Below are positions 2,350 through 39,466 of a stretch of 40,252 bases of DNA, piece by piece. The notes under the pieces were generated by a model. The model was not told the DNA's origin and made no database searches. It saw only the letters and a program-made list of their open reading frames with translations. This DNA is from Candidatus Nezhaarchaeota archaeon WYZ-LMO8 (GTDB lineage Archaea > Thermoproteota > Methanomethylicia > Nezhaarchaeales > WYZ-LMO8), in assembly GCA_004347965.1 (NCBI GenBank), contig QNVF01000006.1, positions 1-40,252 on the forward strand. The letters are read 5' to 3'. Each line of letters begins with the position of its first letter. Within the stretch, counting starts at the first letter, position 1. The position numbers and the translations under genes were made by a program.

Positions 2350-3063
2350 ATGAAGCTTCTTAGAAGACATTATTGCATAAAAGAGTCTAGCGGAGAAATA
2401 ATATGCGACTCCACAGTTGGATTAGAAACCGCATTAACCTCGATAGCTTATCACAGAGAATGTTTAGAGAACTATGTTCGTAGGAACCTCGTCTTCAAGT
2501 ATGCCCTAAGCCCTATAGGGGCTGAGGATGATGCCCCCCTCGTTGTTAAGAGAATGGTGGAGTGCTCTAAGATCGCGAACGTAGGACCCATGGCCTCAGT
2601 AGCAGGCGTCTTAGCTGATTTAGCTGTAGAAGCAGCATTAAAGTCAGGGGCAAGAATCATCTTGGTGGAGAATGGTGGAGAGATTGCTGTAGCCGGAAGT
2701 GGAGAGTTCGTAATCGGTATAAGGGCTGGCAGCATCATACCCTTTGGCCTTAAGGTAAAGCCCTGTGATTTGCCCATCGGGATAGCCACAAGCTCGGGAA
2801 GATATGGTCATGCGCTAAGCTTTGGAGAAGCAGATGCCGTCACCGTAATAGCAGACAATGCAGGATTAGCTGATGCTGCTGCCACAGCGATATGTAATGC
2901 TACAAGAGGAGAAGATGCTATAGAGAGAGGCATAGAGAGGGCTATGGAGATTAAGGAGATAAGAGGTGTAATAATAGTAGTTGGAGACTTGATAGGCATT
3001 TATGGAAGACTCCCAGAACTAATCGAAGTAAATTGCGACCACTTAAACGCAAAGACATTATGA
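2350..3063 (+). CDS. UPF0280 family protein (ApbE-like, COG2122; sulfide-assimilation associated)
   Basis: VGPMASVAG, VENGGEIA, GIATSSG.YGHALSFGEADAVTV and LADAAATAICN motifs. Confidence 0.9.
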   Translation: MKLLRRHYCIKESSGEIICDSTVGLETALTSIAYHRECLENYVRRNLVFKYALSPIGAEDDAPLVVKRMVECSKIANVGPMASVAGVLADLAVEAALKSGARIILVENGGEIAVAGSGEFVIGIRAGSIIPFGLKVKPCDLPIGIATSSGRYGHALSFGEADAVTVIADNAGLADAAATAICNATRGEDAIERGIERAMEIKEIRGVIIVVGDLIGIYGRLPELIEVNCDHLNAKTL

Positions 3064-10584: not shown

Positions 10585-11433
10585 ATGGCAAGACACCTGA
10601 TCATCTGTTGTGGTGCTAGAGTAGAGATAGCTGGCTCTGAAGTCATAGTCCTCGATGAACCGCTGACGAAGCGCTGCCCCTTACAGACCATAGCCTACGG
10701 TTATGATGTGATTGATAGAGAAGTTGTAAAGAGAAAAGTAGAAATGAAGATAAATAAGCTGGGTTTCGCATCTAAGGAAAGGCTCTTTATAACTGAGCCT
10801 AGAATACCCTATGGAGCTTCAGAGATCATAATGTCGTGCCTGGAGGACGGTCTATTTGACTGTGCCGTAACAGTATGTGAAGGTTCTGGAACAGTGCTAG
10901 CTTCGACTCCAGAGCTTGTTCAAATGATTGGTGCCTTTCTATCGGGGGTGGTGGAGACAACGCCTGTACCTGAAATAATTGAGAAGTTAAAAAAGAATGG
11001 TGGAATAATTCTCGACGAAATCCGAGCAGCGATAGATCAAGTGGGGGGTGTAGAGCTCGCTGCTAAGAAGGGCTATAGGAGGATAGCAGTGACAGTAGCT
11101 GGATTCAGAAGCTGGGAGATCCCAAAGATAAGAGAATTGGAAAGGAAGTACGAAGTGAATGTCACGATATTTGGCGTCTGCACAACTCGCTGTGAGCTTG
11201 GTGATCTCGAAAACCTCGCGTTATCAGACCTGTTGTGGGGCTGCAACTCAAAACTTATTAGAGAAGAGATAGCTCCTAAAGCACTATTTCAGCTAGGAGT
11301 ATCGATACCGGTCTTCGCATTAACTGAGAGGGGTAAGAGGGCTCTATTGATCCATTTAGCGAAGATGAAGGAGCCTCTTGTTGCTTTCAGAACAAAACTT
11401 CCATACTTAGTCCCTGGAAGGTCTCCTGAATGA
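10585..11433 (+). CDS. Methanogenesis marker 8 protein-like (DUF2099)
   Basis: CPL, YGASEII, DCAVTVCEGSGTV, PELVQMIG.FLSGVVETTP and IDQVGGV motifs. Confidence 0.85.
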   Translation: MARHLIICCGARVEIAGSEVIVLDEPLTKRCPLQTIAYGYDVIDREVVKRKVEMKINKLGFASKERLFITEPRIPYGASEIIMSCLEDGLFDCAVTVCEGSGTVLASTPELVQMIGAFLSGVVETTPVPEIIEKLKKNGGIILDEIRAAIDQVGGVELAAKKGYRRIAVTVAGFRSWEIPKIRELERKYEVNVTIFGVCTTRCELGDLENLALSDLLWGCNSKLIREEIAPKALFQLGVSIPVFALTERGKRALLIHLAKMKEPLVAFRTKLPYLVPGRSPE

Positions 11434-11467: not shown

Positions 11468-12028
11468 ATGAGGTACCTTAAGCTAGATCTTCATACTCAT
11501 CCATTTGAAGCATTAGGTTTCCCAAGCCCTAGCATAGATGTGGTAGCCAAAATAATCAGGCAGGTAAAGAGGTTGGGTCTCGATGGCATAGCAATAACTG
11601 AACACGAGGAGAAACTCTATGGCTTTAAAGCTGCAGAAATAGCGAGAGAGTATTTCCCTGAAGTGATCATAATACCAGGCGTGGAGATTGAAGTTAATGG
11701 CATAGGTCCTGCGACACACAGGCAAGTTGTAGAGCTATACTTAAATGATAAGGTTTTCAGATTTCAAGTACATCCATACGATGAGCGCCCTGAAATACTG
11801 GTTACTTGTCAAGGTATTGAGATTAAGAACTATCTACACAAGGAAATAGACGAAGAGCTAGCCCTACAGTTAGCATCAAAGTTCAGCTTACTACCACTAA
11901 GAAACTCAGATGCGCATAGGCTCGAAGACATAGGTAAGTACTACAACGTGGTTAGTCTTGAGCTTCTATATAGCAAGAGCCTTCCTAGACCTTCTATCGC
12001 ATCTAGAAACGCTAAATCCTTTCATTGA
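11468..12028 (+). CDS. PHP-domain metal-dependent phosphoesterase
   Basis: LDLHTH, GIAITEH, IPGVEI, HP and NSDAH motifs. Confidence 0.85.
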   Translation: MRYLKLDLHTHPFEALGFPSPSIDVVAKIIRQVKRLGLDGIAITEHEEKLYGFKAAEIAREYFPEVIIIPGVEIEVNGIGPATHRQVVELYLNDKVFRFQVHPYDERPEILVTCQGIEIKNYLHKEIDEELALQLASKFSLLPLRNSDAHRLEDIGKYYNVVSLELLYSKSLPRPSIASRNAKSFH

Positions 12029-12195
12029 TATTATGGGCTCAGCATTGGAGTCAAACATCATTCTTCAGACATGCAATGGGACATCATTGCCCAAAAACTT
12101 ATATCAGGACACTTCCTCAAAAACTTATTTGAGACTCTCTAAACCTCTAAGGTAAAGCTTGGCGTGGAAGAATCGAGAAACGTGAGGTATGATTC

Positions 12196-12441
12196 ATGGA
12201 CCTGATGTTCCTCATCGGGTTATTGCTGACAGTGATTGGGGCAGTTCTCGTGGTGATTTCATCCATTAAGATGATTAGGATGAGTGGTGGGAAGTATGAA
12301 TCATCAGGAATAATATTGATAGGACCCATACCAATTGTATGGGGTACTTCTAAGAAGCTTATGGCAGTTATGGGAGTTGTGACTGCCATAGCACTACTAA
12401 TCATAGCCTTATTGTGGACTGCAAGCTTAATTGGTGGTTAA
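12196..12441 (+). CDS. DUF131 / TIGR00304-family small membrane protein
   Basis: SSGIILIGPIPIVWGT signature flanked by TM helices. Confidence 0.85.
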   Translation: MDLMFLIGLLLTVIGAVLVVISSIKMIRMSGGKYESSGIILIGPIPIVWGTSKKLMAVMGVVTAIALLIIALLWTASLIGG

Positions 12442-12442
12442 A

Positions 12443-12892
12443 GTGAGCTATGTCAAGGTAGTTTTTCTAAAAGATGTTGGAGCCTTCGTTGGTAGTGATG
12501 GCAAGATATACGGACCCTACAAATCCGGTGATGAAGCAGTAATACCAGAAGATGATGCTAAGGCTCTAGCACTTAGAGGTGCTGTGGCAAGGATTGGAGG
12601 TTACGTTATCGAGGAGGGTACTAAACCCAGTCCCGCAGCCCTTAAGAGCCTTCCATCAAAGATGGAATTCCCGCTCCTGTTCCCCATCCTAATGTCCATA
12701 GGGTTCATTCTGATAATTGTGGGTCTAATGCTCATGTCGCTTTCAGCGATGAAAGTCTCTGGTATTATAGCTATATTCCCATTTCCTCCGATAGTAATTT
12801 CAGGGCCTGAAGCTATACTGATAGCTATACTACCAATGGCCATAATCTTAACTCTCATCATCTTATTCTTATATCTAATCACGAGGTTTTAA
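12443..12892 (+). CDS. Fusion: N-terminal GINS B-domain-like module plus C-terminal DUF131-like membrane domain
   Basis: N-terminal VKVVFLKDVGAFVGSDGKIYGPYKSGDEAVIPEDDAKALALRGAV resembles the Gins51 C-terminal B-domain; C-terminal TM helices with SGIIAIFPFPPIVISG. Probable start GTG 12443 (ORF from 12431). Confidence 0.7.
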   Translation: MSYVKVVFLKDVGAFVGSDGKIYGPYKSGDEAVIPEDDAKALALRGAVARIGGYVIEEGTKPSPAALKSLPSKMEFPLLFPILMSIGFILIIVGLMLMSLSAMKVSGIIAIFPFPPIVISGPEAILIAILPMAIILTLIILFLYLITRF

Positions 12893-13476
12893 TTCTTAAA
12901 TCCTAATTGAACAATATCAGTCTTCAACAGACAGTCAATAAGCTTGGGGCTTATCACAGGTTTACCATTCACAAGTGGGTAGCTGAAGGGCAAGTAGATC
13001 TCGAGATCGCCACACTTTAAGGTTAAGCTATCAGCTACAGGGATATCACTCAGCTCTACTCCTTGAGCCACCTTGAGGGCCATGTATATCGCTCCATCTA
13101 TGGAAAATTGTCGATTACCTAGACTTCTAGCCCTAGCTCTCCTCATTTTTGATGTTATTAAAGTGAATGTCCTACCCCTAGGAGGATGATCTCCAAGTAT
13201 TCCTCCAACTACTACGCTTTCAACATCATTGAAATCTGATGGTTCTAAGAGCTTGTCAGCTCTAGGATCGAGAACTATAACTCCCTCGTTGTCGAAGAGT
13301 TCGACAGCGCTCTCTCTGTATACTTTCCCAAGTTTCTCTAACGTCTTAAATCCCCTCTTCACGTTTGTGAAAGCTAAGTTATCCTTCCCGACAATCAGTG
13401 ACGCATGCTCATACTCTATGAGGACCCACTTGCTTAAGCGAGGCTCTAAGTGTTCTATCACAAAAAGTTGACTCAA
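12889..13476 (-). CDS. SPOUT-fold SAM-dependent methyltransferase, Sfm1/DUF431-like
   Basis: FVIEHLE, W.LIEY, VLDP.A, VVGGILGDHPPRGRT and QFSIDGA motifs. Confidence 0.88.
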   Translation of the reverse strand: MSQLFVIEHLEPRLSKWVLIEYEHASLIVGKDNLAFTNVKRGFKTLEKLGKVYRESAVELFDNEGVIVLDPRADKLLEPSDFNDVESVVVGGILGDHPPRGRTFTLITSKMRRARARSLGNRQFSIDGAIYMALKVAQGVELSDIPVADSLTLKCGDLEIYLPFSYPLVNGKPVISPKLIDCLLKTDIVQLGFKN

Positions 13477-13552: not shown

Positions 13553-14431
13553 GTGAAAATGAAGTTAAAACCTGAATGTATACCATGCATATTAGACGTG
13601 AGACGACGAGAACTAGAGATGCTCGGGCTAGAGGAAGAAGAAGCATCTAAAGTAATGGTCGAGGTGACTAAGTACATGAGTAAGCTACTGAGTACGGACG
13701 TGAACGTCACCAGATTAGCATCATTGATCTACAGGAAGTTTAAGGAACTAACGCTTGAAGATCCATACTTCTGTATTCGCGAGAGGGCGTTAAGCAGGTT
13801 TAATGAAATAAAGGATTTTTGCCTTAGAATTCTTGAGGGATTTGAGGGTTACAAGAGGTTTAGTGAAGCTGTTAAACTATCTCTTTTAGGCAACAGCTTT
13901 GATTATGGTGTAGCTGAGTTTAAACCTCCAGAGCTAGGGTCCATAACTGAGCTTGTGAGCTCAATGATCATAGAGAAAGATCAAATACCTCAGCTCTACG
14001 AAACGTCAAAAGCAGCGAAAATTGTTTTCTTGTTGGATAACGTTGAGGAACTACCTTTTGATTACGTTCTTCTAAGTGAGCTTAAAAGGTTGGACTCGAA
14101 GATCACGGTCATAGCTAAGTCGGGCACGTTTCAGAACGATACTACTATAGATGACACCAAGAAGGTTGGTCTTCATAAACTAGTAGATAAGTTGATGGAT
14201 AGCGGAAGTGATGGTTCCAGTATATTCTTAGAAGAGGTGTCAGAAGAGGTCAAGAGAGACCTCATGACCTCTAACCTCATAATAGCTAAGGGGATGGCTC
14301 ACTACGAGTACATAGCAGATACACCTCTTAAAACTAAAACCTTCTTCCTCTTAAGGGCTAAGTGCAAGGTTGTAGCTAGAGAGCTTGGCGTGAACGTTGG
14401 GAGTTACGTTGTTTTTCGAGCTCTTCCTTAA
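13553..14431 (+). CDS. DUF89 / ARMT1-like damage-control phosphatase
   Basis: ECIPC, GNSFDYG, LLDNVEE, NDTT, IAKGMAHYE and LLRAKC motifs. Confidence 0.9.
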   Translation: MKMKLKPECIPCILDVRRRELEMLGLEEEEASKVMVEVTKYMSKLLSTDVNVTRLASLIYRKFKELTLEDPYFCIRERALSRFNEIKDFCLRILEGFEGYKRFSEAVKLSLLGNSFDYGVAEFKPPELGSITELVSSMIIEKDQIPQLYETSKAAKIVFLLDNVEELPFDYVLLSELKRLDSKITVIAKSGTFQNDTTIDDTKKVGLHKLVDKLMDSGSDGSSIFLEEVSEEVKRDLMTSNLIIAKGMAHYEYIADTPLKTKTFFLLRAKCKVVARELGVNVGSYVVFRALP

Positions 14432-14446
14432 ATGCTTTCAAACGGG

Positions 14447-14975
14447 GTTCAGCTCCTATACAAGTTTACGTAAGTTGATTTCATGCCACATTTTGTTCCC
14501 CTGCATCGGTCTTGGGTCTGCATCGCCCCTCGGGGGCGTTCAGGGGCACCCCTAGACCTCCACATCTTGCGCATCTTACCAACAGGTTTATACACGCTAT
14601 GATGTTTCTATCGCCTATAAAACCGCATTTGGTGCACCTCAGCACTCTACCACTAGAATCTTTAAGCCTACCTCCGCATCTAGGGCACGTAGATGATGTC
14701 TTCCTCGGATTAACATGCTAACATGTCTAATCTCAAGACCTCTCTAGAGCTTCGTAGCCTACGGTAAACTGAATCCTCCCGTAGAACCACAGAAATAGCT
14801 TCTTGTTGAAAGCACTATTACCGTTAACTCTGCTTCTAAGCTTGTTTAGGTTTTCGAGAACTACGATAGAGCTATATTCATTGGCTAGCTCTGTTACTTT
14901 TTCACTTATCCTGTGAGCGTAGTCCCATGCGATGCTCTTCATTCTTTTACCGTGTCTCTTAACTGCTCTAACGTG
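14447..14975 (-). pseudogene. tnpB: Truncated, frameshifted tnpB (IS200/IS605 family) C-terminal remnant with right end
   Basis: Fragments VKRHGKRMKSIAWDYAH..IVVLENL..RIQFTVGYEALE / VNPRKTSSTCPRCGG..LRCTKCGFIGDRNIIACINL / MKSTYVNLYRS* lie in different frames; near-tandem duplication CATGTTA-G-CATGTTA near 14711-14725. Confidence 0.88.
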
Positions 14976-15078: not shown

Positions 15079-15783
15079 ATGTTCTCACGTTATGCAGCTC
15101 TAGTTAAGAACATGAGGGGAGTCGTAGCATTTGACCCAGCTGAGGATATCTCACAAGATCTTAAGTGGCTCATTAGCAGGTTTAAGTATCGAGTTCTCGG
15201 TATTTCTCCATCCCTTGCAAAGAATTTGACGAGGGTTGTTAAGCCACTAGTACCCTTAGTATATCCTCATCGAGAGGTCATGGAATTCGTGGACTTCGTG
15301 TCTAAGGTCTTGAACTTAAGGCACGATATTGCTGAGGCGATATGTCTGGCCTCATGCTATGTTAGCCCCCTACTTACATTAGGGTCTAGAGCACAAAGCA
15401 TCATAAAGGAAATAGCAGTGAATGAAGTAACTTCAAAAGTTGAGATTGGTGTAAGAGATTGGAAGCTTCATCTCAGGATAGCGGACTACAGCGTTCTCGA
15501 TCTCTATGAGTGGAGTACGACTCAAGCGCAGAAGTTATGGCTTAATGACGTAAACGTGGAGGAGATAATGTCTGAGAGAGCTTTAGCAATAATGAGGGAT
15601 GAGAAGCGATATTGGCGGCTTCAAAGAGGAAGCCTAGAGCCAAGGACCTTCCTAGTCTATTTAGACCTCATACAAAGCCTTCACAAGAAGGGCATGGACC
15701 TCAAAGCCTTAACCAAGTATGATGGGAACGTGGTTTCAGCATGCTTAGCAATAAACGTCTCAGTTCTCGTGAAACCATGCTAA
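15079..15783 (+). CDS. Hypothetical protein
   Basis: 234-aa ORF with host-like codon usage; no recognisable motif. Confidence 0.7.
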   Translation: MFSRYAALVKNMRGVVAFDPAEDISQDLKWLISRFKYRVLGISPSLAKNLTRVVKPLVPLVYPHREVMEFVDFVSKVLNLRHDIAEAICLASCYVSPLLTLGSRAQSIIKEIAVNEVTSKVEIGVRDWKLHLRIADYSVLDLYEWSTTQAQKLWLNDVNVEEIMSERALAIMRDEKRYWRLQRGSLEPRTFLVYLDLIQSLHKKGMDLKALTKYDGNVVSACLAINVSVLVKPC

Positions 15784-25660: not shown

Positions 25661-27067
25661 TTAATCCTCTCGTCTATCGTTGAACCACTTAAACAGTCCT
25701 CTAGGCTTAAATGTTCTCCTTCTTGAATTTAGAACTACATCCTCAAGGAATCTATCCCTAACAGGTTCATAGACCTCTTTGAAGAACTTCTGCTGGTCTA
25801 AAAGTACTTCCTTCTTAAAGCTCTTCAGGTACTCTAAGGCTGCCTGCCACGCTTTCTCATAAGCAACTACAGTGTTTATGTTCTGCATTATTTGCCTATC
25901 GTAGTCTTCAGGTCTTTGTTCTTGATCTCCTATGATAAACCAGCCTCTATCAGACACGAAAGCCAATTCATCACCTACTTGAATAGCTTTCTCCTCCCTC
26001 ATATCTTCACTCATCCTCTTCACGATCTTCGCCATCTTCTTAGACGATACCTCTTTGGCATGTCTCTTAGCCCATGCGTAAAATATTGCTCTATTCAATC
26101 CAAATGACTTTGCCTTCTCTAAGTCTCCAGTCAATAAGTAGTAGCGGGCTGCTTGAAGTAGTCCCATGACTTGAAATCGCCCAATTCTTCCTTTCCTCTC
26201 GATCTCCGCGACCTTGGGAGCAGCAATGGTGGTCCTAGCTTTCACTTCTATGGTACCAAGCCAGCCCTTATAACCACCTATCACTTCAAGGGCTTTAATG
26301 GCAGCTTCATCGCCCTCACCATCAACAAAGCCTCTCCACTCCTCATCATGCTTAAAGTTCTTAGGATCAGCCCACTCGAGCTCGAAGCTGTCTAGAATGC
26401 TGGGCTTAAAGCATACACAGCATAAATCCCTTCTCCTATGAAGTGCCAAAGGAGCTGTGAATACTCTTTTCAAGTCTATCTCATTTTCCACCTTAAGTCC
26501 GCTAGATCTTGACGCTACATCAAGTATACTGCTCCTACATCTTTCTAAGACGTAGTCCACTAATGAGTACGCAATGTCCAATGGATTATGTTTAAGCAAA
26601 ACATCGCTTGAAAAGCACTTTTCATGTACGTGAACGTGAGCCCCCTCACCACTCCACTTTATGAAGACAGAGTTAATTACTCCCAACTTCTCGAGCTCAT
26701 CAACTATGATTCTAGCTACCTCTATTACGTCTCTCCACCTCTCCAATTCTCCATCTATATCCCATATTGGGGAAGCGTAGGCTATGTTCTCGCGCTTCTC
26801 CAAGTCAAGCTTCGTAGCTAACTTACCATAAACATTCACGGATCCGTAAATGGTTCTGGGCTTAACACCTTTAAACTGCTTAATTAAACTCTCAACATCA
26901 AGTGGCGTATCAATCTTGAGGGGCCTTCCATCCCTCCAATACCTCAAGAAAACTCTGCTACCTAAAGTTCCTCCTTCGAGGGCAACCCACCTGCCTTTGC
27001 AGTAATCGGATATTTCCTTCTTAACCACCTCCTTCGAGTAATGTTGCTCAACGAGCTCGTAGTCCAC
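25661..27067 (-). CDS. Archaeo-eukaryotic primase (AEP)-like domain fused to an uncharacterised helical C-terminal domain
   Basis: Motif I PIWDIDG, motif II KWSGEGAHVH, downstream EID.KRVFTAPLALH; C-terminal GRFQVMGLLQAARYY..AKSFGLNRAIFYAWAK. Probable start GTG 27067 (ORF open from 27196). Confidence 0.75.
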   Translation of the reverse strand: MDYELVEQHYSKEVVKKEISDYCKGRWVALEGGTLGSRVFLRYWRDGRPLKIDTPLDVESLIKQFKGVKPRTIYGSVNVYGKLATKLDLEKRENIAYASPIWDIDGELERWRDVIEVARIIVDELEKLGVINSVFIKWSGEGAHVHVHEKCFSSDVLLKHNPLDIAYSLVDYVLERCRSSILDVASRSSGLKVENEIDLKRVFTAPLALHRRRDLCCVCFKPSILDSFELEWADPKNFKHDEEWRGFVDGEGDEAAIKALEVIGGYKGWLGTIEVKARTTIAAPKVAEIERKGRIGRFQVMGLLQAARYYLLTGDLEKAKSFGLNRAIFYAWAKRHAKEVSSKKMAKIVKRMSEDMREEKAIQVGDELAFVSDRGWFIIGDQEQRPEDYDRQIMQNINTVVAYEKAWQAALEYLKSFKKEVLLDQQKFFKEVYEPVRDRFLEDVVLNSRRRTFKPRGLFKWFNDRRED

Positions 27068-27392
27068 GAAAACACACCAACAAATTATTAAGCCAAGGAG
27101 TCCAATAAAGTTAAATAGAAATTGAATGACTTCAGCTAATAGCTCGTATGTACTCCTTGATCGCGACGCAAGCTTTATAAAGAGTAAGCATAGCAAGACT
27201 GGCAGGTGCTAAGGATGCTTGGTGATCTAGTTTACCTCGACTAGCGACTTAGCACATCTTCAGCTCGAGAGATTTAAGTGGACTATAGAACAAGCATCTA
27301 AGAGCTCCCTTTACTCCAACAAGCTTAAGAGGGTTGATGTCCACTCCCTCAAGGATCTAACGAAATTACCGTTTACAACAAAGCAAGACCTT

Positions 27393-28534: not shown

Positions 28535-29242
28535 TTGGAAGTTTTAGGCTTAGTATCAAAGAGAAGGAAGATTAGCAAAGACGACTTCTACAAGAAGCTC
28601 ATTTACGGTAAGGGAACAGTATACGGTGTCGACAGGGACGTCCTAGTCAATGCCATAAATAACCTATCATTAGAAATGTCTTCAACGCCATTCGGTTTAG
28701 CGTGCAAAGTTCTCTCAGCAACAGCTAAAAAAGATATTGGAAGCATAGTTGTTCTCAGCGAAGTAAAGCCATTGGCCAAGGAGCTTAGAGAACTGCTGAT
28801 ACTGACTGGCTTAGCTGCAGACGACATTTTAGACCTCCCTTACGCCAAGGACATATTTACGTCGAAGAAGGCTAAGAGGTCCGTTGTCTATAGTCACATA
28901 AGATCAACCGCCGAATGCTTCATCATAAGCTCTCTGCTAAGAGGAGAGATCCCTCAATCGCTAACAGAGAAGATCTTGGAAGCTACATTAATGATTCAAC
29001 CATCAATAGTCAAGGCGGTGGAGAAAGCTGGTAAAGACGGCTTACATGTATGGAACATAGCGTGGAATGCACTATCTTCAGTTAAACCACTTATGGACGT
29101 ACAGAACATCCCCCTAATGCTTTTAGCATTACCTTATGCAGCTCAACAAGTAAAGTTGACTGCTGCCTACATGTACATGAAGAAGAGACTTCAAATCGAC
29201 ATAGATACTTTATTGGCACAGTCGATTGTGAAGTTAAAGTAG
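28535..29242 (+). CDS. Hypothetical protein
   Basis: 235-aa ORF preceded by GGAGG RBS; no recognisable motif. Confidence 0.65.
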   Translation: MEVLGLVSKRRKISKDDFYKKLIYGKGTVYGVDRDVLVNAINNLSLEMSSTPFGLACKVLSATAKKDIGSIVVLSEVKPLAKELRELLILTGLAADDILDLPYAKDIFTSKKAKRSVVYSHIRSTAECFIISSLLRGEIPQSLTEKILEATLMIQPSIVKAVEKAGKDGLHVWNIAWNALSSVKPLMDVQNIPLMLLALPYAAQQVKLTAAYMYMKKRLQIDIDTLLAQSIVKLK

Positions 29243-33373: not shown

Positions 33374-33943
33374 CTATTGTAACCAGGGTATATTGATCAC
33401 TATCTTGATCTCTAAGTCGGTGTATCCAAGGCTTCCGATGCTAGCGTAGAAGATCTTCGTAAACAGGTTGTACATCGTGGCAGAGGCGATCTCCTGTACC
33501 ATGCCTTCAGGGAAGTCAGCGACAGTCATATTTACTCCATTGAGCGTTCCACCACTACTACAGAGATATACAGCCTCCATCTTCACATTTTCCATACTGG
33601 CTTCTCCGAAGGTAAGGATCGCTGAAACGTAAATCGGACCTGGAAGACTTGGTATATCTACTTTGAGCGTTCTATTTACAACTTGACCTCCTGGACAATT
33701 TATGGACCCTACCTCTTGGATTATCACGGGGGCAGCTAGCTCTGTTGTTTCGTCAATAACCACTTCGCTCTGTCCACCTTTCATGACTACGTTAGTGAGG
33801 TGGGCTTCTGGAATGGTGATGTCGATGGTCTCGTATATTGCATGTGCGTAGAGCACTGCACCCCATACTACCTGCGCTACCGACATGGCTAGCAGTAGTA
33901 GCACTACTGCCGCAAGCCCTCCCACTGTTATTTTCCAATTCAA
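33374..33943 (-). CDS. Membrane-anchored/secreted beta-rich protein, DUF6230-like
   Basis: N-terminal TM helix, beta-rich body, and C-terminal MVQEIASATMYNL...SIGSLGYTDLEIKI resembling the DUF6230 C-terminus; paired with a DUF6114-like gene. Confidence 0.55.
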   Translation of the reverse strand: MNWKITVGGLAAVVLLLLAMSVAQVVWGAVLYAHAIYETIDITIPEAHLTNVVMKGGQSEVVIDETTELAAPVIIQEVGSINCPGGQVVNRTLKVDIPSLPGPIYVSAILTFGEASMENVKMEAVYLCSSGGTLNGVNMTVADFPEGMVQEIASATMYNLFTKIFYASIGSLGYTDLEIKIVINIPWLQ

Positions 33944-38713: not shown

Positions 38714-39466
38714 TTGAATGACGAGATTCTTAAGCTACCTATAGTTAAGAAGAACGAAGTTGAGATATCCAAGATACTTGTTGGGACATCACCCTTCATA
38801 GCTGCAGGTCAATTCGAGAAAAGCTACTTATACTATCTCGAGTTCGTGATGAAGAGAGGTGAAGTGGCTAAGATATTGTCCTGGTGCTTAAATAATGGAT
38901 TCACTTGGATTCAGGCTATTGACGTAAGCTTCCTAGCAAGCGAAATAGGCATAGCTTATGAGCATGCTAGTCAACCTCCCATAATAGTCCTTAGTACGTG
39001 GGACAAACCTAATAGAGCTATTGAGAGGTTCAAGAAGTTCGACGTGAAAATTGTTTTGGCTCATGCATCAGTAGTCGATCACCTTGATGTCCCTCTAATT
39101 AAAAAGTTTCTAGCTCAAGTTAGAGAATTGGGATTTACTCCTGGAATTGCAACCCATACACCTAACAAGACCCTACATAAGCTGAAGCATGTTGATGAGA
39201 TAAGGGTCGTAATGGTGCCTTTAAATTATGCAGGGCTATTTAATGAGGACGTTGATGAAACCCTTGAAATTTTGAAAGAGATGAACGTTGTCGTAATAGC
39301 TAAGAAGGTTCTTGGAGCTGGAAGGCTACCGGTAGAAAGATCTCTTCTATGGGCTCTCAGTAGACCTGAGATAGACTCTATTGCTTTAGGAGTAGCTTCA
39401 CTTAGCGAAGCGGAATACACATTGCTCTTAGCTCGTCAGCTAGCTTGTAGAGCTAGCGTTAACTGA
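38714..39466 (+). CDS. Aldo/keto-reductase-like TIM-barrel protein
   Basis: ISKILVGTSPF, PGIATH, MVPLNYAG, VIAKKVLGAGRL and ALGVAS motifs. Confidence 0.6.
   Translation: MNDEILKLPIVKKNEVEISKILVGTSPFIAAGQFEKSYLYYLEFVMKRGEVAKILSWCLNNGFTWIQAIDVSFLASEIGIAYEHASQPPIIVLSTWDKPNRAIERFKKFDVKIVLAHASVVDHLDVPLIKKFLAQVRELGFTPGIATHTPNKTLHKLKHVDEIRVVMVPLNYAGLFNEDVDETLEILKEMNVVVIAKKVLGAGRLPVERSLLWALSRPEIDSIALGVASLSEAEYTLLLARQLACRASVN

Follow-up and report, generated by a model that had tools for sequence, protein, structure and literature searches.

A gene of the archaeon Candidatus Nezhaarchaeota archaeon WYZ-LMO8 was found to encode a GINS B-domain joined to a membrane protein. It lies on contig QNVF01000006.1 (assembly GCA_004347965.1), of which positions 1 to 40,252 were analysed; this whole 40,252-nt stretch is hereafter named the window. 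In this gene (positions 12443 to 12892, the fusion gene), the B-domain is N-terminal, a flexible linker follows, and the C-terminal half resembles DUF131, a family whose canonical form is encoded directly upstream. This architecture is new to the literature searched, where we found no description of a B-domain outside GINS and PriS, nor of a GINS-type B-domain outside the cell, and no paper naming DUF131, PF01998 or TIGR00304. The finding widens the meaning of “GINS B-domain”, treated so far as a part of the replisome (GINS, PriS). Our best reading, to which we give about an even chance, is that the fusion protein is the second subunit of an antiparallel DUF131 heterodimer, and carries the B-fold as a cytoplasmic adaptor.

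The gene pair and the N-terminal B-domain

The features of the locus are listed below, with the evidence used for each of them in brackets.

12196..12441, + strand: canonical DUF131 gene, 81 aa (PF01998, TIGR00304, hydropathy, Lys/Arg (K/R) counts)
12433..12437, + strand: Shine-Dalgarno-like GGTGG, 5 nt before the GTG start of the fusion gene and within the end of the DUF131 gene (sequence read)
12443..12892, + strand: fusion gene, 149 aa, with GINS B-domain, disordered linker and DUF131-like two-helix module (profiles, homologue starts, AlphaFold2, Foldseek)
12452..12592, + strand: GINS B-domain, Gins51_C (PF22090, Foldseek, invariant columns)
12605..12667, + strand: flexible linker, residues 55-75, net positive beside the first transmembrane (TM) helix, TM1 (confidence score pLDDT <50, K/R count)
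12677..12754, + strand: TM helix 1 of the DUF131-like module, residues 79-104 (AlphaFold2 secondary structure, hydropathy)
12755..12805, + strand: short loop with the Pro-rich hairpin IFPFPPIVISGPE, few K/R, predicted outside (AlphaFold2, K/R counts)
12806..12886, + strand: TM helix 2, residues 122-148, then a conserved K/R at the second-to-last position (homologue alignment, AlphaFold2, K/R counts)

Both open reading frames (ORFs) are as a first-pass annotation of this DNA, made from the sequence, had described them. The second, on the same strand as the DUF131 ORF, is open to 12892 either from 12431 (a 153-aa frame) or from the GTG codon at 12443. Because the residue matching this GTG is the first residue in all 10 close homologues of the fusion protein, the gene was set at 12443..12892 (149 aa). 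The stop codon of the DUF131 gene occupies 12439-12441, so that the fusion gene starts one base after its end. This spacing, together with the GGTGG motif lying inside the end of the DUF131 gene, suggests that the two genes are translationally coupled. A scan for bacterial-type promoters and terminators gave 5 sites against 5.2 expected; its models are bacterial, and uninformative for an archaeal host.

Both its sequence and its predicted fold identify the N-terminal domain as a genuine GINS B-domain. PF22090 (Gins51_C) matches the 153-aa frame at residues 8-54, over profile positions 1-47 of 48, with 43.2 bits (cut-off 27) and E 3.3e-11. When the protein was compared with PDB chains by phmmer, only the C-domain of Thermococcus kodakarensis Gins51 came below E 0.01 (5ghr_B, 8.4e-4; 3anw_A, 4.1e-3). 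In an AlphaFold2 model of the fusion protein, built on a 17-row alignment, residues 1-40 have a pLDDT of 85-91, and the domain is a small beta-sheet with one helix that superposes on solved B-domains. Its best Foldseek matches in the PDB were 5ghs_D, 3anw_A and 5ghr_D/B (E 2.6e-4 to 9.7e-4), and superposition on the Thermococcus Gins51 C-domain gave a root-mean-square deviation of 0.8-2.1 Å over 49-53 columns, with 34-37% identity. Eukaryotic GINS B-domains (Psf1/Sld5, in structures of the Cdc45-MCM-GINS complex, CMG) ranked next. The first-pass annotation had recognized a Gins51 B-domain in the first ~50 aa, and both the profile and the structural matches agree with it.

With the Gins51 C-domain of T. 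kodakarensis (3ANW, 5GHR/5GHS, 7E15), the fusion protein shares the fold, the YGP hairpin, the Asp of the contact strand and a flexible linker. It differs in that the domain is N-terminal rather than C-terminal, is accompanied by two membrane helices, and is not part of a GINS tetramer. The helical A-domain (PF05916, Sld5) gave no Pfam match in the fusion protein, the remainder of which is made of the linker and the two TM helices. One homologue, P0008, bears in its public record the name “DNA replication complex subunit Gins51”; this is an over-annotation, since P0008 has no A-domain and has two TM helices. Across 11 family members, 28 invariant columns fall within residues 5-58 and 12 within residues 77-153, which argues that selection acts on the B-domain of the fusion. 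The invariant residues specific to the family are acidic (E35, E40 and D42, numbered on the 153-aa frame).

Upstream, the 81-aa protein passes both models of DUF131 (PF01998, 38.3 bits, cut-off 22; TIGR00304, 51.5 bits, cut-off 33). Its TM1 (about residues 4-23) and TM2 (about residues 55-78) enclose a loop rich in K/R, which holds the hydrophobic hairpin GIILIGPIPIVWG. The C-half of the fusion protein follows the same plan in the AlphaFold2 model, helices 79-104 and 122-148 flanking a small Pro-rich hairpin, and helix-IFPFPPIVISG-helix mirrors the corresponding elements of the upstream protein. It differs from DUF131/TIGR00304 in falling below both curated cut-offs, in having no basic loop and in its reverse charge bias: TIGR00304 matches weakly (15.2 bits, E 0.013, residues 86-149 of the 153-aa frame), aligning the hairpin of the fusion with the GPIPIV hairpin of DUF131, and PF01998 does not match. 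Two intermediates join it to the family. One is protein P0038, which aligns with query residues 48-150 (E 1.2e-4) and scores above the PF01998 cut-off (26.1 bits); the other is the paralogue encoded at another locus, L032, which passes PF01998 at 28.8 bits. By way of these intermediates, we take the C-half to be a diverged DUF131 paralogue. DUF131-like TM helices behind a canonical DUF131 gene had been proposed in the first-pass annotation, and are borne out by the predicted helices, the link through P0038 and the scores of the upstream protein. It had also proposed a Pro-rich linker: a linker is present (~20 residues, 55-75) and disordered (pLDDT <50), “Pro-rich” being a mild overstatement for 3 Pro in ~14 residues.

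Distribution of the fusion and pairing of the two genes

A search of 5.8 billion proteins returned 10 homologues of the fusion protein, 142-151 aa long and 51-92% identical, all of them with PF22090. Their named sources are Nezhaarchaeota/Nezhaarchaeales or “Thermoprotei” metagenome-assembled genomes, and the one cluster obtained from the ESM Atlas, of 52 members, is that of the protein itself. Among 401 sampled genomes of the phylum, 10 carry the full-length fusion: the genome under study, 7 of the 9 other genomes of its family (f1), and 2 of the 3 genomes of a genus, g15, belonging to another family (f4). No fusion was found in two f1 genomes, G224 (85% complete) and G368 (72% complete). The remaining genome matches cover the B-domain alone, in frames of either ~160-230 aa (Gins51-type) or ~680-850 aa (solute-binding proteins).

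The genome under study is a metagenome-assembled genome in 78 contigs, 93% complete, and such an assembly may in principle give rise to a chimera or a mis-called ORF. We consider this explanation hardly conceivable here, since the same architecture recurs in 10 independent protein clusters, in the 10 genomes above and in the 52-member Atlas cluster. Moreover, a 1965-nt hot-spring metagenome contig from another study spans 11468-12941 with 0 differences, and thus bridges both genes as well as the junction between domain and membrane part. Conservation in relatives, which the first-pass annotation had wanted checked, is thereby established, and the case that it named as fatal, a fusion unique to this assembly, does not apply.

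In a tree of 80 B-domains, the 14 fusion domains form one clade (support 100/99), on which basis the fusion appears to have arisen once. The deep forks of this tree have a support of 39/72, and it settles neither where the clade attaches nor whether the donor was of Gins51 or of solute-binding-protein type. With a narrow hidden Markov model of the fusion-family B-domain, no second copy was detected among the 10,633 six-frame ORFs of the genome.

The pairing of the two genes is also conserved. Immediately upstream of the fusion gene, 7 of the 10 full-length loci (L004-L009, L013) have a canonical DUF131 gene, and this arrangement spans two lineages with differing flanks, the flanking genes being entirely different in genus g15. 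Counting in addition the loci where the paralogue has no B-domain, tandem homologous genes were found in 7/10 fusion loci and 3/3 of these other loci examined.

Charge bias and soluble domains of the membrane pairs

We counted K/R residues around the helices in 10 tandem pairs, in which the paralogue carries a B-domain (7 pairs), a zinc finger (2 pairs) or an Hsp20-like tail (1 pair). In all 10 pairs, the K/R residues of the canonical DUF131 protein number 4-5 in the loop, 0-2 in the N flank and 0-1 in the C tail, and those of the paralogue 0-2 in the loop, 1-3 in the N flank before TM1 and at least 1 in the C tail after TM2. In the pair of the window, the upstream protein has 5 K/R in the loop against 0 in the tails, which predicts loop in and termini out, and the 15 residues preceding TM1 of the fusion protein hold 2 K/R against 1 D/E. 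From this opposite bias and the positive-inside rule, the canonical protein would have its loop inside and its termini outside, and the paralogue both termini and the soluble domain inside. No signal peptide was found in the fusion protein. The B-domain is therefore predicted to be cytoplasmic, which also fits the zinc finger found at the same place in homologous proteins; as a prediction, this agrees with the cytoplasmic location on which the first-pass annotation had made its proposal depend.

Tandem homologues with opposite K+R bias are the signature of antiparallel dimers, as in paired SMR transporters and Fluc. The opposite bias of the DUF131 paralogues thus points to an antiparallel heterodimer with hairpins entering from opposite faces. 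The likeness to paired SMR transporters and Fluc/CrcB lies in tandem homologues with opposite K/R bias, here in 10/10 pairs. The differences are that each DUF131 subunit has just two helices and a hairpin, that DUF131 is not known to act in transport, that one of the subunits bears a soluble domain, and that topology is here a prediction.

The mechanism that we favour is the following. The products of 12196..12441 and 12443..12892 would together form a small membrane complex of DUF131 type, as its two subunits. Of these, the canonical one would insert with its basic loop in the cytoplasm and the paralogous one the opposite way, so that in the resulting heterodimer each membrane face would be entered by one of the two Pro/Gly-rich hairpins. 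On the second subunit, the B-domain would face the cytoplasm, held by a tether of ~20 disordered residues. There, the domain would most likely act as a small protein-binding hook through its exposed edge strand G-D-E-A-V-I-P, as B-domains do elsewhere, and would either recruit a soluble partner to the complex or connect the complex with this partner.

Other soluble domains are found on the same membrane module. The paralogues of loci L032 and L034, as well as protein P0038, carry an eight-Cys zinc finger of B-box/HIT type, which is N-terminal in L032 and L034 and whose Pfam matches in these two paralogues are weak, below cut-offs. In L033, the paralogue is instead extended at its C-terminus by an Hsp20-like segment, which at E 0.13 is no more than a lead. 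At these three loci, which were matched by the membrane half alone, a canonical DUF131 gene lies directly upstream of the paralogue. A word-indexed search with the membrane half alone gave only 4 close homologues, and the claim of a swappable domain is based on the three loci and the one protein. As the zinc finger and the Hsp20-like tail stand in for it elsewhere, the B-domain appears to be one of several small interaction modules placed on the DUF131 paralogue.

These substitutions bear on another explanation, in which the acidic B-domain would dock on the basic loop of DUF131, or on its own membrane module, and gate or stabilise the complex as an internal plug or regulator without any outside protein. 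Several features go in this direction: in the predicted topology the loop of the partner, with its 4-5 K/R, faces the side of the B-domain; the family-specific invariants are acidic (E35, E40, D42); the tether is short (~20 residues); and the genes appear translationally coupled. Against it, the zinc-finger and Hsp20-like domains replace the B-domain with no obvious change in the partner loop, and the two genes are unlinked in one genome (G254). We regard such an internal role as rather improbable.

Candidate partners and other carriers of the B-domain

In the Gins51-GAN complex, the Gins51 C-domain binds the DHH domain of GAN through strand 4; D163 makes hydrogen bonds, and M164, I166, I140, V184 and I186 pack on GAN L313, V315, A316 and L319, according to Oyama et al. 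2016 (PMC5100581). There, the D163A mutation, as well as the M164A/I166A double mutation, abolishes the complex. Binding of DP1N, in turn, is abolished by V148D or V170D (Oki et al. 2021, PMC9023282).

The contact strand of the fusion domain aligns without gap to that of Gins51 (Y-G-P-F-x-x-G-D-M-A-I-I-P / Y-G-P-Y-K-S-G-D-E-A-V-I-P), so that D163 is kept as D, M164 becomes E and I166 becomes V. At the M164 position, E is found in 14/14 fusion domains, against 5/30 Gins51-type domains, where V/I/L prevail (19/30), and 0/15 domains of solute-binding-protein type. The equivalent of D163 is D in 12 of the 14 fusions and E in the other 2, that of I166 is V/I/L/A, in a column also variable among Gins51-type proteins, and that of V170 is D or E in 12/14. 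The hydrophobic contact pair of the GAN hook (M164 and I166 in T. kodakarensis) is thus not found in the fusion domain. The genome's own GAN has I, L, A and L at the positions of L313, V315, A316 and L319, and keeps the hydrophobic patch; its own Gins51 has V and F on the strand (E-D-V-I-F). Altogether, these residues argue moderately against the canonical binding modes of GAN and DP1, and the partner of the membrane B-domain is probably not a GAN bound in the manner of Gins51. A prediction of the complex between the own GAN (31-row alignment) and residues 1-60 of the fusion (17-row) scored 0.00; run without controls, it has no bearing on binding. PolD DP1 was dropped as a candidate partner, as DP2 was not found in this 93% complete genome.

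The replisome genes of the genome were searched for as well. Its Gins51 (172 aa, G000:C43 17..535, loci L027/L035), located at a contig start, was found only through its A-domain with a relative's Gins51 as query, and has no Pfam match, PF22090 included. Its model (pLDDT 82) matches 3anw_A over 180 columns at E 2.8e-8. The first-pass annotation had asked whether this Gins51 retains a B-domain. It does, in a remodelled form: a short helix (residues 133-138) stands where the G.D..YGP hairpin was lost, and the strand E-D-V-I-F is kept. The remodelled form is common to the own genome and the 9/9 sampled f1 relatives (10 sequences; L036-L044). A canonical Gins51 B-domain is present in families f7 and f8 and in genus g15, where canonical Gins51 (PF22090, E 3.3e-15) stands alongside the fusion. 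The genome also encodes a Gins23-type protein of 181 aa in B-A order (L002:1288-1833) and, at L031:212-1657, an orthologue of GAN that is 481 aa long and matches 5ghr_A at E 1.1e-59. Further products are a second RecJ-like protein of 433 aa (L030:1396-2697), an NrnA-like DHH protein and a PolB-like fragment. PriL and PriS lie at the start of contig C61 (L028), and PriS, which ends in a B-type domain, runs off the contig. PriS and Gins51 are adjacent in genome G112, and the contig break in the own genome probably splits a PriS-Gins51 operon. By eye, we take the three ORFs after Gins51 to be ribosomal protein L44e, ribosomal protein S27e and eIF2-alpha, the ORF adjoining Gins23 to be an RFC small subunit, and the one beside the second RecJ-like protein to be a Toprim (DnaG-like) protein.

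The first-pass annotation had proposed that the fusion protein could tether or sequester replication proteins at the membrane. In such an explanation, the B-domain would bind a CMG-associated protein (GAN/Cdc45, the second RecJ-like protein, the GINS core or PriS) at the membrane, as a tether or a decoy. It draws on a bona fide B-domain whose nearest solved relative is the GAN-binding C-domain of Gins51, on the Asp that hydrogen-bonds the GAN strand being kept (D 12/14, E 2/14), and on the GAN orthologue, second RecJ-like protein and PolB-like fragment encoded in the genome. Furthermore, the f1 Gins51 proteins (10 sequences) lost the G.D..YGP hairpin while the membrane protein keeps the canonical form in 7/9 relatives, and Glu at the M164 position is tolerated in 5/30 Gins51-type B-domains. 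However, the conserved hydrophobic patch of the own GAN would be confronted with an invariant Glu, at a position where hydrophobic residues are retained in the own Gins51. In genus g15, a canonical Gins51 coexists with the fusion, so that the occurrence of one is not complementary to that of the other, and no replication gene was seen conserved beside the pair, in the window or at the homologous loci. Finally, unrelated domains occur on the same membrane module, and the B-domain occurs in many non-replisome proteins. We therefore consider a replisome tether unlikely, and as first stated the proposal is unsupported, given a promiscuous domain, Glu in 14/14 fusions, a GAN that keeps its hydrophobic patch, other domains on the module and no PolD found in the genome. 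A more specific version, in which the ancestral, canonical hook moved to the membrane protein in the Nezhaarchaeales as the B-domain of Gins51 was remodelled, and the membrane copy still binds GAN or the second RecJ-like protein, seems to us a shade more doubtful than the internal plug.

How widely the B-domain is used was apparent from a search of 1.84 billion representatives with the fusion query, which gave 56 matches at E <=1e-3. We scanned 42 of them with Pfam, leaving out P0004, of the fusion family, and 13 short or Gins51-sized matches. PF22090 was found at E <=1e-3 in 39/42 (36 above cut-off). The Sld5 A-domain of a true Gins51 was also present in 4/42, and SBP_bac_5 in 8/42 (P0016, P0017, P0025, P0032, P0045, P0046, P0051, P0064). 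A Gins51_C domain also ends a Prim-Pol/D5 primase-helicase (P0026, 913 aa) and a DEAD-box helicase fragment (P0034, 302 aa), several proteins of 200-1229 aa have tandem B-domain copies, and coiled-coil proteins are also among the carriers. P0026 could be a replication protein of a mobile element that borrows the hook of its host. P0057, a 582-aa protein with five SLBB domains, was matched by the B-domain query in four stretches (E 7.0e-4); this reflects either a distant likeness between B-domain and SLBB beta-grasp, or chance.

The Gins51_C-type domain thus emerges as a mobile module, present in a membrane protein, solute-binding-protein stalks, helicases and primase-helicases. Because it is mobile and occurs outside replisome proteins, its presence cannot be read as “replication”. 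The C-terminal domain of PriS and the B-domains of Gins23 are likewise a B-fold reused outside Gins51, but within replication proteins (PMC2861644); in the passages searched of that paper (Swiatek and MacNeill 2010), neither “membrane” nor “transporter” occurs.

The best non-fusion matches are tails of solute-binding proteins (P0013, E 5.4e-14; P0016, E 7.0e-13; P0017, E 6.1e-11), Gins51-type proteins coming at ~1e-5. In the five solute-binding proteins whose sequences were read, a signal peptide precedes the solute-binding domain; one or two B-like domains come next, then a coiled stalk rich in Ser, and a single anchor with K/R at its end closes the chain. A hydropathy scan found the C-terminal anchor in all 8 of the SBP_bac_5 proteins. 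In this layout, the B-domain of solute-binding proteins is extracellular. The stalk domains of SBP_bac_5 proteins are the non-fusion sequences most similar to the fusion domain (E 1e-13 to 1e-3), and also lie near a membrane anchor; they differ in their place outside the cell, in their frequent duplication, and in the coiled, Ser-rich stalk and single C-terminal anchor that come after them, whereas the fusion domain is N-terminal and predicted cytoplasmic.

By analogy, the N-terminal domain of the fusion protein might itself be translocated and act at the cell envelope. Such a location would agree with the ranking of the tails of P0013, P0016 and P0017, and with the place of the domain in solute-binding proteins, behind an SBP_bac_5 domain led by a signal peptide and ahead of a C-terminal anchor with K/R at its end. 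It is at odds with the absence of a signal peptide and the 10 K/R in the 75-residue N-terminal tail, with the opposite K/R bias in 7/7 B-domain pairs, and with the tree, where the fusion domains do not nest in the clade of solute-binding proteins. In addition, a homologous module has at the same place an eight-Cys zinc finger, and such a finger is expected to be cytoplasmic. We hold an extracellular module to be very unlikely.

The reading that we prefer, a cytoplasmic adaptor on an antiparallel DUF131 heterodimer, meets several difficulties of its own, gathered here as points that weigh against it. Topology and heterodimer are predicted from charge bias alone, and the inter-helix loop of the fusion model has low confidence (pLDDT 57-60). 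By homology, the outside location just discussed is conceivable, the closest non-fusion matches by E-value being extracellular copies from solute-binding proteins. The two genes are not obligately linked: 3/10 fusion loci, on short contigs (L010-L012), have no upstream DUF131, and in genome G254 the DUF131 gene stays without the fusion in an ancestral PHP-DUF131-SFM1-like locus, the fusion being on another contig. Finally, the contact-residue argument is of moderate strength, given the Glu at the M164 position in 5/30 Gins51-type domains and the variable I166 column.

If the more specific version of the tether, with the canonical hook moved to the membrane protein, is true, it would give DUF131 pairs their first function, and would couple the replisome or a pool of its nuclease to the membrane, as an archaeal counterpart of the old idea of membrane attachment for replication. 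An archaeal replisome linked to the membrane would be a first, should the B-domain bind a CMG component. In any case, DUF131 tandem pairs, with their opposite charge bias and a predicted swappable cytoplasmic domain, offer a testable antiparallel heterodimer with two re-entrant hairpins.

The rest of the window is ordinary chromosome, with genes for an ABC transporter, HMG-CoA reductase, cysteinyl-tRNA synthetase (CysRS) and lactate utilisation; a DNA ligase gene lies 11 kb from the pair, and one for an HhH-GPD glycosylase 2 kb from it. No gene of the window links the pair to replication. Neighbouring PHP, DUF2099, SFM1-like and ARMT1-like genes were dropped as candidate partners, for they flank the pair in f1 only and not in g15. 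The DUF2099 protein (10585..11433) falls short of the cut-off for “methanogenesis marker 8” (TIGR03275; 228.8 bits, cut-off 232.7), and is followed by a small PHP-domain protein (11468..12028); the place of both with respect to the DUF131 pair is conserved in f1. In G254, the genome of a congener, a 120-nt gap follows the DUF131 gene (L049, contig C239) before the SFM1-like gene, and the fusion gene is on a short contig (C208, L012) with other neighbours. Six ORFs of the window, 189-511 aa long, match no Pfam family at E <=1e-5: 25661..27196 (- strand), 2350..3063, 15079..15783, 28535..29242, 33374..33943 and 38714..39466. Two short Cys-rich ORFs, at 14481..14645 (- strand) and 14397..14595, resemble by eye the terminal zinc ribbon of a transposase fragment of TnpB/OrfB type.

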